Under the pieces are notes generated by a model. It did no database searches, was not told the DNA's origin, and saw only the letters and a list, made by a program, of their open reading frames with translations. From Escherichia coli (lineage in GTDB: Bacteria; Pseudomonadota; Gammaproteobacteria; Enterobacterales; Enterobacteriaceae), in the NCBI RefSeq assembly GCF_016903815.1, contig NZ_CP069973.1: a stretch of DNA of 64,000 bases, one strand, 5' to 3'. The position numbers and the translations under genes were made by a program. Below, one piece after another: positions 32,870-33,967 of this stretch. Positions within the stretch are counted from its first letter, which is position 1. Every line of letters starts with the position of its first letter.

Positions 32870-33287
32870 CAATTAAAGACCGGTTGGTGCGGCACTGACC
32901 GGTCAGTTATGAATGGTAGATTTCACCTTAAACCCTGGTGCGGTAAAGCTGCTGACTTTTTCGGGTACACCATCCTGATGAAGCAAATGAACACCCAATC
33001 AAAAAAATATTCTTGAATATAAAATATTTATAGCACCCATAATTCATCCTTATTATTTGTTGTTTCTTTTCTGTAGATGTGTCCCCGCTTAATTAAAAGT
33101 AATAAACCATCCTGGGTTATTACTAAACCATTTTTGAGTAACAATTGAAATAACTGCAACTGTTACATTATCTTTGGATGCCGTCTCGCAAAAACAAAAC
33201 GACATGCAAAAATCCGCTTTTTTTAAATGATTTTTCGGCGTAATTTTCGCACATACATTAATGAGTAATATATGTAAGGTGGTGGTA

Positions 33288-33506
33288 ATGGCGATGAATA
33301 CGGTTTTTCTTCATTTATCAGAAGAGGCAATTAAACGGCTGAATAAGCTTAGGGGCTGGCGTAAGGTTTCACGATCTGCAATTTTACGCGAAGCGGTAGA
33401 GCAATATCTGGAACGTCAGCAATTCCCGGTGCGTAAAGCAAAGGGAGGCAGGCAAAAGGGGGAGGTAGTTGGTGTTGATGATCAGTGTAAGGAGCATAAG
33501 GAATGA
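33288..33506 (+). CDS. yiiE: Ribbon-helix-helix (CopG/Arc/MetJ-like) putative transcriptional regulator
   Basis: 72 aa from ATG 33288 (AGGTGG SD): MAMNTVFLHLSEEAIKRLNKL...; RHH beta-strand + two helices. Confidence 0.8.
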   Translation: MAMNTVFLHLSEEAIKRLNKLRGWRKVSRSAILREAVEQYLERQQFPVRKAKGGRQKGEVVGVDDQCKEHKE

Positions 33507-33748
33507 CAAAAATTTTTCATTCTTGAATATAAAAAAACAGATGCCCTTATTCTGGTATTAATACAAGGCTGTTTTACTTGAACTTATAATAACTGCAACT
33601 GTTACATCATATCTGGAAAACGCCTCGCAAAAATAAAAAGTGATGCGTAAATACGCTTTCTTTAAAGATTCGACAAGGGTACTTTTCTCTCCATAGATTC
33701 AAAAATGATATGGGCGAGATATTTATGAACTCTCTGGCAGGTATAGAT

Positions 33749-33967
33749 ATGGGCAGAATTTTACTCAATTTATCGAATGAGTTGTTTAAGCAACTTGATG
33801 ATCTCGAGGTGCAGCATAATCTTCCTCGTGCGGAGCTATTACGGGAAGCGGTAGATCAATACCTGGTAAATCAATCGCAAACAGCAAGAGCCAGTGCTTT
33901 TGGCATCTGGCAAGGGAGTGAGGAAGATGGTGTCCAATACCAGCGTAAGCTGCGCGAGGAATGGTAA
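33749..33967 (+). CDS. yiiF: Ribbon-helix-helix putative regulator, paralog of yiiE
   Basis: 72 aa from ATG 33749: [21 protein letters not shown]...[12 protein letters not shown]; similar to yiiE product. Confidence 0.75.

Follow-up and report, generated by a model that had tools for sequence, protein, structure and literature searches.

A probable decayed and tandemly duplicated vapBC cassette at the yiiE-yiiF region of Escherichia coli

yiiE and yiiF are two adjacent ribbon-helix-helix (RHH) genes of Escherichia coli, the products of which were listed among the transcription factors of unknown function in a 2022 survey (PMC9308461). We analyzed them in a stretch of 64,000 nucleotides (nt) from contig NZ_CP069973.1 (assembly GCF_016903815.1), referred to here as the window, in which all coordinates are given unless another locus is named. 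Our results suggest that the yiiE-yiiF region is very probably the decayed remnant of a type II vapBC toxin-antitoxin (TA) cassette adjoining fdhE, which was duplicated in tandem and lost its toxin gene. Parts of the region 32250-34150 were found in 5424 of 5426 complete E. coli genomes, and the region is 100% identical in the chromosome of strain EE72d.

The vapBC slot next to fdhE

A scan with one genome per species returned 34 related loci, 28 of them non-Escherichia, from about a dozen genera that include Citrobacter, Pseudocitrobacter, Salmonella diarizonae, Klebsiella, Kluyvera, Trabulsiella, Lelliottia, Kosakonia, Franconibacter, and Cedecea. These 28 loci carry a single yiiF-like RHH gene followed by a vapC gene for a PIN toxin of ~124-127 amino acids (aa), which is intact in most loci and truncated in three, and a second RHH gene was found in none of the 28. 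fdhE lies convergently downstream in 26 of them. In the window, fdhE (34149-35078, -) is the convergent right-hand anchor that fixes the synteny with the intact vapBC loci, and its identity amounts to 87-100% in every locus that carries it (tblastn). Since the relatives have one RHH gene and vapC beside fdhE, the slot filled by yiiE and yiiF corresponds to the vapBC slot of the Enterobacteriaceae.

E. coli K-12 is commonly described as lacking vapBC. A distant blastn search with a Citrobacter vapC gene detected a near-full-length vapC in at least 57 of the 5426 E. coli genomes, and PGAP already annotates VapC in these rare intact strains. The gene order was established for two strains, 2014C-3075 and 2016C-3878, where yiiE is followed by a CopG regulator, a VapC family toxin, and fdhE. 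The VapC protein of 2014C-3075, accession WP_001129490.1, is encoded at the same locus, has 124 aa, matches the Pfam PIN domain (E=4.4e-19), and possesses the acidic residues of a PIN toxin.

In the window, vapC survives as a pseudogene (vapC2', 33967-34112, +), of which codons 1-31 (33967-34052) and 104-124 (34056-34112) remain. Because only these codons are left, we classify the locus as a degenerate rather than a functional VapBC. Compared with E. coli vapC, the remnant shows a 1-nt deletion near codon 7, a change of FDTN to FDID, the loss of codons ~32-103, and a further 15-nt deletion; no intact PIN toxin is encoded. The frame starting on the yiiF stop codon encodes MAKKIWLFDIDIVIDLFSVKIEAKQALAA, which in the whole PDB matches only 7BY2_B, ‘Ribonuclease VapC’, at residues 6-29 (phmmer). 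With ten VapC proteins as tblastn queries, residues 9-31 were placed at 33984-34052 (E 2e-6 to 3e-4) and residues 104-126 at 34056-34109 (E 4e-5 to 0.08), and the alignment of the remnant DNA to E. coli vapC reached a score of 133 (0/500 shuffles). In K-12, REP/BIME-type palindromic units (GCCGGATGCGGCG...CCGGCCTAC) are inserted into the vapC remnant downstream of yiiF (locus L001, 2380-2560), so that the vapC wreck of K-12 differs from that of the window.

The gene upstream of this remnant, yiiF (+), spans 33725-33967 in the 80-aa form of RefSeq or 33749-33967 in a 72-aa form and is best described as an orphan vapB antitoxin gene. Apart from PDB entry 2K5J, which is the nuclear magnetic resonance structure of YiiF itself, the next relative in the PDB is VapB, chain A of the VapBC complex 7BY2/7BY3 (E=1.5e-26, 59-60% identity). 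The match to 7BY2_A is full-length and includes the C-terminal pattern G(I/L)WQ..EEDG.EYQR.LR.EW, as in a VapB antitoxin. The RHH_1 score of the window allele is 14.6 bits, below the cut-off of 20.5, while the vapC-linked E. coli allele scores 26.6 and thus above it. The TAA stop codon of yiiF overlaps the ATG of the vapC remnant (TAATG; GGAATGGTAATGGC, 33958-33971), a layout that is the same in the intact loci.

The promoter region of yiiF (33612-33724, +) comes from the ancestral vapB upstream region and starts at a copy of a 22-nt motif, TCTGGAAAACGCCTCGCAAAAA (33612-33633). In the vapBC family, the conserved region with the -10 element, the Shine-Dalgarno sequence, and the repeats lies within 25 nt of the start codon. 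The family consensus TGATATACTGGAGGTATATATG, which comprises an extended -10, the Shine-Dalgarno sequence GGAGG, the repeats, and the start codon, is kept in the vapC-linked allele of 2014C-3075 and is mutated to TGATATGGGCGAGATATTTATG in the window (33706-33727), with a similar state in K-12. The TGATATA-N6-(T)GATATA repeats, near-invariant in the ancestral promoter, are likewise degraded at the window yiiF.

Between the yiiF alleles of the window and K-12, both of which lack vapC, 12 nonsynonymous and 2 synonymous differences were counted, against a neutral expectation of ~11 to 3; the comparison with the vapC-linked allele gave an omega of ~0.35, based on small counts. yiiF without vapC appears to drift neutrally, as judged from these substitutions, and is probably on its way to being lost. 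The gene is present in 4654 of the 5426 E. coli genomes and missing in ~14%, and in 99% of genomes yiiF has no accompanying toxin.

In Nissle 1917 and E. whittamii, which have no yiiF, the yiiF-side motif TCTGGAAAACGCCTCGC is fused with the final ~60 nt of vapC; this retained 3' end is, in Nissle, identical to that of an intact E. coli vapC. From their structure, these alleles are read as deletions derived from the two-copy state. The deletion junction is the same in Nissle 1917 (locus L002, 3830-3870) and E. whittamii (locus L037, 3310-3350), though they are different species, which would be explained either by an old shared polymorphism or by interspecies allele transfer.

An anti-addiction role of YiiF against plasmids was considered and discarded: a plasmid search for YiiF relatives yielded chromosomes wrongly labelled as plasmids or large Citrobacter/Klebsiella replicons, and there was no common enterobacterial plasmid family among the close matches. 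Three further contigs are probably contaminated or mislabelled assemblies. Those labelled Bacillus coahuilensis and ‘uncultured Robinsoniella’ (L004, L005) carry an Escherichia-type yiiE-yiiF, with ~2 kb between the two genes in L005, and one labelled Chryseobacterium sp. 18061 (L022) carries a Citrobacter-like vapB-fdhE locus.

yiiE (33288-33506, +) encodes a 72-aa RHH protein that we regard as a VapB-derived paralogue. That yiiE and yiiF are tandem paralogous RHH genes, as the original prediction had stated, was borne out by protein comparison (38% identity over 56 aa, E=1e-10). YiiE matches Pfam RHH_1 (PF01402) with E=1.1e-11 and 44.6 bits, compared with a cut-off of 20.5, and aligns full-length to VapB/YiiF. 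Its C-terminal tail is without the tryptophan and the acidic pattern, and of the two parts of a VapB-type protein, YiiE therefore has a strong RHH domain and a degenerate toxin-binding tail. The yiiE stop codon overlaps an ATG (ATGA, 33503-33506) in the style of TA operons. The ratio of nonsynonymous to synonymous substitution rates (dN/dS) of yiiE, determined from few substitutions among the E. coli classes and E. whittamii, is 0.09-0.26. The five alleles compared do not differ in residues 1-53 (5/5), where the RHH domain lies, and every replacement falls in the tail. Judged by these comparisons, yiiE is under purifying selection.

Repeat units and duplication history

Three sequence blocks had been described as shared by the regions upstream of yiiE and yiiF, and all of them are present where they were placed. 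Block 1, ATTCTTGAATATAAAA, occurs at 33009-33024 and 33519-33534 (16/16 identical, spacing 510), and block 2, ATAACTGCAACTGTTACAT, at 33150-33168 and 33589-33607 (19/19 identical, spacing 439). Block 2 and the third block form a single gapless repeat of 79 nt (33149-33227 versus 33588-33666) with 81% identity. Local alignment of 32990-33287 with 33507-33724 gave a score of 122, whereas 500 dinucleotide shuffles gave a mean of 28.8 and a maximum of 55 (z=20.4; 0/500). The similarity of the two upstream regions, for which an alignment had been proposed as a check, is therefore far above chance. The alignment is colinear from ~33108/33548 to ~33271/33711, and its portion left of the ancestral 22-nt motif is significant alone (score 51, null maximum 39, 0/500). 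A scan of 31200-34300 against Rfam (E<=1) returned as its sole match a sub-threshold Thr-leader (21 bits versus 55), and no known RNA accounts for the blocks.

The units were delimited with an nhmmer profile built from 20 intact vapBC loci, reaching from 350 nt upstream of vapB through to fdhE. Four segments of the window matched it: a native left flank (31256-31531, +; profile positions 6-281, E=4.7e-49), the yiiE unit (33173-33509, +; positions 239-600, E=2.2e-31), the yiiF unit with the 5' part of vapC (33550-34056, +; positions 165-690, E=1e-86, with good posterior probabilities only from 33612), and the vapC 3' end with the end of fdhE (34055-34182; positions 902-1045, E=1.6e-24). In both the yiiE and the yiiF unit, the ancestral upstream homology starts at the 22-nt motif TCTGGAAA(G/A)CG(G/C)CTCGCAAAA. 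The window holds three copies of this motif, all on the plus strand: the original at 31489-31508 (TCTGGAAAGCGCCTCGCAAA) and those at 33173-33194 and 33612-33633. The motif is the most conserved upstream element across the genera of the vapBC family, and the cassette begins with it on the left also in loci with a different left flank (Pseudocitrobacter, Trabulsiella). In the native flank, the ancestral homology stops just past the motif copy, where an island of ~1.5 kb starts (31532-32995, +).

The spacer between yiiE and yiiF contains what we call the S1 tail (33503-33611, +), composed of a vapC1' start at ATGA 33503-33506, block 1 at 33519-33534, a vapC relic at 33525-33589, and a junction block at 33588-33611. 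The relic aligns to codons ~83-105 of E. coli vapC (score 41, null maximum 34, 0/500); within it, GATGCCCTTATTCTGG (33540-33555) is aligned to vapC GATGCCATTATTCTGG. As the spacer aligns to vapC coding sequence, block 1 and the sequence following it probably represent a pseudogene relic. By its composition, the spacer is probably made up of a vapC start, a large deletion, a vapC relic overlapping block 1, a ~24-nt junction with a palindrome, and the head of the next unit. Two other assignments were tried and rejected. Block 1 as a relic of the N-terminal LFDTN codons of vapC was replaced by the significant colinear alignment to codons ~83-88. The palindrome block as a relic encoding IILATAQ had been proposed from an in-frame tblastn extension in Nissle and E. 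whittamii; that match is driven by the genuine vapC 3' end, and GATGCCCTTATTCTGG matches those codons better.

Upstream of yiiE lies a comparable segment, the S0 tail (32996-33172, +), which we interpret as the tail of an earlier repeat unit. It contains the relic of a stop/start overlap (AATCAAAAAAAT), block 1 (33009-33024), a homologue of the vapC relic (33108-33148), and a junction block (33149-33172). Its alignment with the yiiE-yiiF spacer has a score of 51 (0/500), and the part from AATGACAAAAA to block 1 a score of 39 (0/500). A 12-bp hairpin, AGTAATAAACCA / TGGGTTATTACT, is found at 33098-33124 in this decayed and indel-ridden tail. Around 33060-33130, ~63 nt between CATCCT direct repeats are missing in K-12 and 21 nt between AAACCAT repeats in Nissle; these gaps are small deletion polymorphisms of the slippage type.

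A single duplication would leave the native flank directly before the first copy. E. whittamii fits this exactly, with yiiE directly after the native flank and no island in between. The native flank of E. coli, which has a motif copy of its own (31489-31508), is found 1.7 kb further to the left, and next to it comes the island, which carries a HigB-like and a NadS-type open reading frame (ORF). The simplest history is one of at least three units, of which most of the first was replaced by the island.

The original prediction had ascribed the repeats to an old tandem duplication with indels. Homology through tandem duplication followed by indels was confirmed, but the word ‘old’ needs a qualifier: the coding sequences of yiiE and yiiF share 52% nt identity, with a synonymous divergence (dS) of ~1.9, versus 81% in the upstream block, which includes perfect runs of 16 and 20 nt. 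Such a discrepancy suggests that the flanks underwent unequal crossing-over or gene conversion at a later time. Purifying selection is unlikely to have kept the blocks alike, since most of the upstream block is unconserved among genera.

The alleles found upstream of yiiE have a similar bearing. In class I alleles (window, 3059, Nissle), AATAACTGCAACTGTTACAT is a perfect match to the yiiF-side copy, whereas the motif (TTTGGATGCCGTCTCGC) departs from it. Class II alleles (K-12, 2014C) are diverged in the former (AACAACTGCAACACTCTTAT), and the K-12 form matches perfectly in the motif (TCTGGAAAACGCCTCGC). By megablast, 1269 genomes belong to class I and 3465 to class II. Such a mosaic would be produced by unequal crossing-over or gene conversion of tandem units, and the perfect runs of 16-20 nt most likely reflect recent events of this kind between the units rather than operator conservation.

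Taken together, these data are best explained by a scenario in which a unit consisting of the 22-nt motif, the promoter, vapB, and most of vapC was duplicated in tandem in the Escherichia lineage and probably triplicated in E. coli. In this scenario, the upstream copy became yiiE, a domesticated RHH protein that lost its toxin-binding tail and is kept by purifying selection, and the downstream copy is yiiF, still recognisable as VapB and, in a few E. coli strains, accompanied by an intact vapC. In the window, vapC is a frameshifted stub with an internal deletion, and yiiF, its -10 element, and its Shine-Dalgarno sequence appear to be drifting.

Regulatory readings of the shared sequences

The shared blocks had been taken for upstream regulatory motifs. 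This is not supported: block 1, together with the sequence following it, aligns to vapC coding sequence, and only the third block, cg(t/c)ctcgcaaaaa (CTCGCAAAAA), is part of an element conserved across genera.

RHH antitoxins usually repress their own promoters at sites overlapping the -10/start region. By analogy with this family, each of the two RHH proteins would repress its own promoter via sites near the -10 element and the start codon, with the TGATATA-N6-(T)GATATA repeats of the ancestral promoter and the palindrome CATTAATG in front of yiiE as candidate operators. The promoter region of yiiE (33173-33287, +), derived from the ancestral vapB upstream region, starts at the motif copy TTTGGATGCCGTCTCGCAAAAA (33173-33194), and 16 nt of the ancestral -10 region are missing from it. 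CATTAATG, a perfect 8-bp palindrome, is located inside CGCACATACATTAATGAGTAATATATGTAAGGT (33255-33287), close upstream of the yiiE start. Among the eight aligned Escherichia loci, including E. whittamii, neither the palindrome nor the sequence on its 5' side varies (8/8); few-base differences occur just 3' of it in three loci, and the sequence further upstream is more variable. From this conservation, CATTAATG is a candidate YiiE operator or promoter core.

YiiE itself is probably a DNA-binding protein that acts independently of a toxin, as its family relationship suggests. According to a more far-reaching proposal, YiiE descends from VapB, is free of a toxin, and has been recruited as a genuine regulator; it may share cis elements with YiiF (the 22-nt motif and, in roughly one quarter of E. 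coli, also the palindrome block), so that the former antitoxins would cross-regulate each other and YiiE would modulate the live TA module in the rare strains with an intact vapC. We regard this as unlikely. If true, it would mean that tandem duplication has rewired a TA operator network in nature.

An equally doubtful proposal concerns the 22-nt motif (TCTGGAAAGCGGCTCGCAAAAG), which could be a functional repeated element, either a sigma-54-type promoter (TGG-N8-YYGCA) or the site of another regulator, controlling vapB-type genes from ~115 nt upstream. It would be compatible with a decayed vapBC cassette. The cross-genera conservation of the motif speaks for it, as does the GG...GC spacing present in all three window copies. 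In addition, five independent rearrangement breakpoints, including the duplication junctions, the island, and the Nissle deletion, abut or cut the motif, a pattern to be expected if antitoxin expression depends on the motif as its outermost element. This clustering could, however, also reflect microhomology with vapC (CTGG.AA.CGC). The likeness to sigma-54 sites amounts to 9 of 12 consensus positions, assessed by eye, and a loose pattern that is nearly the same but longer by one base is about as frequent as expected by chance (13 versus 12.2), so that the resemblance carries little weight. Moreover, no gene for an enhancer-binding protein is adjacent, and neither the K-12 RpoN genomic SELEX (systematic evolution of ligands by exponential enrichment) paper nor a sigma-54 chromatin immunoprecipitation paper lists a yiiE/yiiF site in its main text.

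The shared blocks could also be duplicated cis-regulatory motifs, in which TAAC-N7-GTTA serves as the operator for auto- or cross-regulation by YiiE and/or YiiF, as the original prediction proposed; this we consider very unlikely. The palindrome block TAACTGCAACTGTTA is present in 33149-33172 and 33588-33611, at the duplication junction. RHH proteins are known to bind short repeats, and the block is identical over 20 nt in both window units while the flanks are only ~75% identical. TAAC-N7-GTTA occurs four times in the 64-kb window against 0.62 expected, two of the four being these copies, and a sigma-70-like match TTGAAA-18-TATCTT (33145-33174) spans the palindrome upstream of yiiE, although such matches are at chance level. 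On the other hand, the homology of both copies to the intact vapBC upstream regions starts only at 33173 and 33612, to the right of the palindrome. Lying immediately left of the 22-nt motif, the block is thus outside the ancestral promoter region, and it is absent from all 16 aligned non-Escherichia vapBC operons (0/16). In the 3465 K-12-type genomes, the sequence upstream of yiiE reads AACAACTGCAACACTCTTAT, a broken form, although YiiE residues 1-53 are the same in the five alleles compared. The palindrome has arms of only 4 bp, lies ~120-140 nt upstream of the start codons, and its allele classes form the mosaic typical of gene conversion. Neither conserved before orthologues and paralogues nor located at the promoter, it is, on these comparisons, probably not an RHH-binding site.

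That the repeats are a small mobile or repetitive element (a miniature inverted-repeat transposable element or REP-like) inserted twice without gene duplication, as the AT-rich sequence, the short hairpin at 33098-33124, and the genuine REP insertion downstream of yiiF in the K-12 allele might suggest, is hardly credible, given that an 86-nt query over the yiiE-side block gave one megablast match per genome, always at the same locus, that terminal inverted repeats and target-site duplications are lacking, and that the repeat is colinear with the promoter, the RHH gene, and the vapC-derived sequence.

Several observations weigh against the interpretation as a duplicated and decayed vapBC cassette. 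The vapC relic in the spacer is significant only against E. coli vapC and marginal against the genes of other genera, and the ~24-nt junction block bearing the palindrome was not traced to any source. The three-unit history rests on the 177 nt of the S0 tail; a relic of a third RHH gene was not detected in 31520-33030, where only the match of the stop/start overlap and block 1 is significant. Promoter-like matches in the region are no more frequent than by chance, the scan of 32850-34200 for sigma-70 promoters and terminators having found 4 versus 3.7 expected. The dN/dS values of both genes come from few substitutions, and autoregulation as well as the proposed operators are extrapolated from the RHH antitoxin family. 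Finally, the palindrome block is perfect in the two units of ~23% of genomes, which could reflect a lineage-specific function.

The neighborhood and known systems

The island that replaces most of the first repeat unit contains a RelE/HigB-like ORF (31630-31941, +; 103 aa) with a weak Pfam RelE match (E=0.0045), followed by an ORF for a NadS-type helix-turn-helix (HTH) antitoxin-like protein (31942-32232, +; 96 aa), which matches HTH_3 (E=4e-10) and also has an MqsA-antitoxin-like match. From their sequences, the two look like a second TA-like pair, and with this pair inside the island, the locus looks like a TA hotspot. Two small ORFs follow at 32317-32529 (+; 70 aa) and 32591-32869 (+; 92 aa), which are rich in Cys/His and Arg and without a Pfam match. 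Other strains have them annotated as hypothetical proteins, and of the second, K-12 retains only a truncated relative; the annotation of the island ORFs was compared in strains 3059 and Nissle.

To the left of the cassette lies a divergent alpha/beta-hydrolase gene (-), whose upstream region ends near 31400. Between this gene and the ancestral vapBC upstream region, the native flank contains a LexA-box-like sequence, CTGTATGAATGTACAG (31418-31433; CTGT-N8-ACAG). The site is also found in Citrobacter, Salmonella diarizonae, Kluyvera, Lelliottia, Franconibacter, and E. whittamii, and it lies outside the duplicated units. This hints that the hydrolase gene or the ancestral vapBC operon may be under SOS control.

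Literature searches for yiiE and yiiF returned catalogue-type mentions only, and none of the papers covered by the search mentioned yiiF together with the word ‘antitoxin’. Expression of yiiE increased 2.5-fold on SlyA overproduction, and the gene is a SlyA SELEX target (PMC5797941, PMC6134199); a SELEX peak of the RpoS holoenzyme lies between yiiD and yiiE (PMC5493296).

Our findings give both y-genes a concrete origin and testable partners, namely the VapC of 2014C-3075 and the solved complex 7BY2. About 1% of E. coli genomes, like many related genera, still have a live vapBC version, and the locus provides a within-species series of TA decay with intact, toxin-deleted, and antitoxin-deleted forms and a domesticated paralogue. 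Our findings also call for caution, as perfectly repeated AT-rich blocks before paralogues can be recombination-homogenised pseudogene and junction debris and not operators. The process is ordinary TA decay with one domesticated copy; because TA degeneration and orphan antitoxins are well known, its significance is modest.

Among known systems, YbfE (NCBIfam PRK11675, ‘LexA regulated protein’), a CopG-family RHH protein of E. coli, belongs to the same small RHH fold class and shows weak profile similarity (E ~0.003-0.005), and the LexA-box-like site in the native flank (31418-31433) adds to the likeness. The scores of 17-18 bits, however, fall far short of the family cut-off of 62, and the duplicated units do not include the LexA-like box. 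Orphan or domesticated antitoxins are a closer parallel: yiiE resembles them in that purifying selection preserves its RHH domain, a cognate toxin is absent, and the tail is degenerate, and yiiF in having kept the tail while the toxin is absent in 99% of genomes. YiiE and YiiF, in contrast, have no known target genes or DNA sites, and their close homologues are chromosomal and not plasmid-borne.

The best counterpart is VapBC of Klebsiella pneumoniae (PDB 7BY2/7BY3) with its fdhE-adjacent orthologues in Citrobacter, Salmonella diarizonae, Kluyvera, Trabulsiella, Lelliottia, Kosakonia, and Franconibacter, to which YiiF is 55-71% identical. The window differs from this group in that a frameshift and the absence of codons 32-103 leave it with no intact PIN toxin gene, that the antitoxin gene is present twice along with the tail of a third unit, and that the -10 element and Shine-Dalgarno sequence of yiiF are mutated. 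It shares with the group the chromosomal slot convergent with fdhE, the type of RHH antitoxin, the stop/start overlap, and the 22-nt upstream motif, and its vapC remnants match the partner toxin residue for residue.

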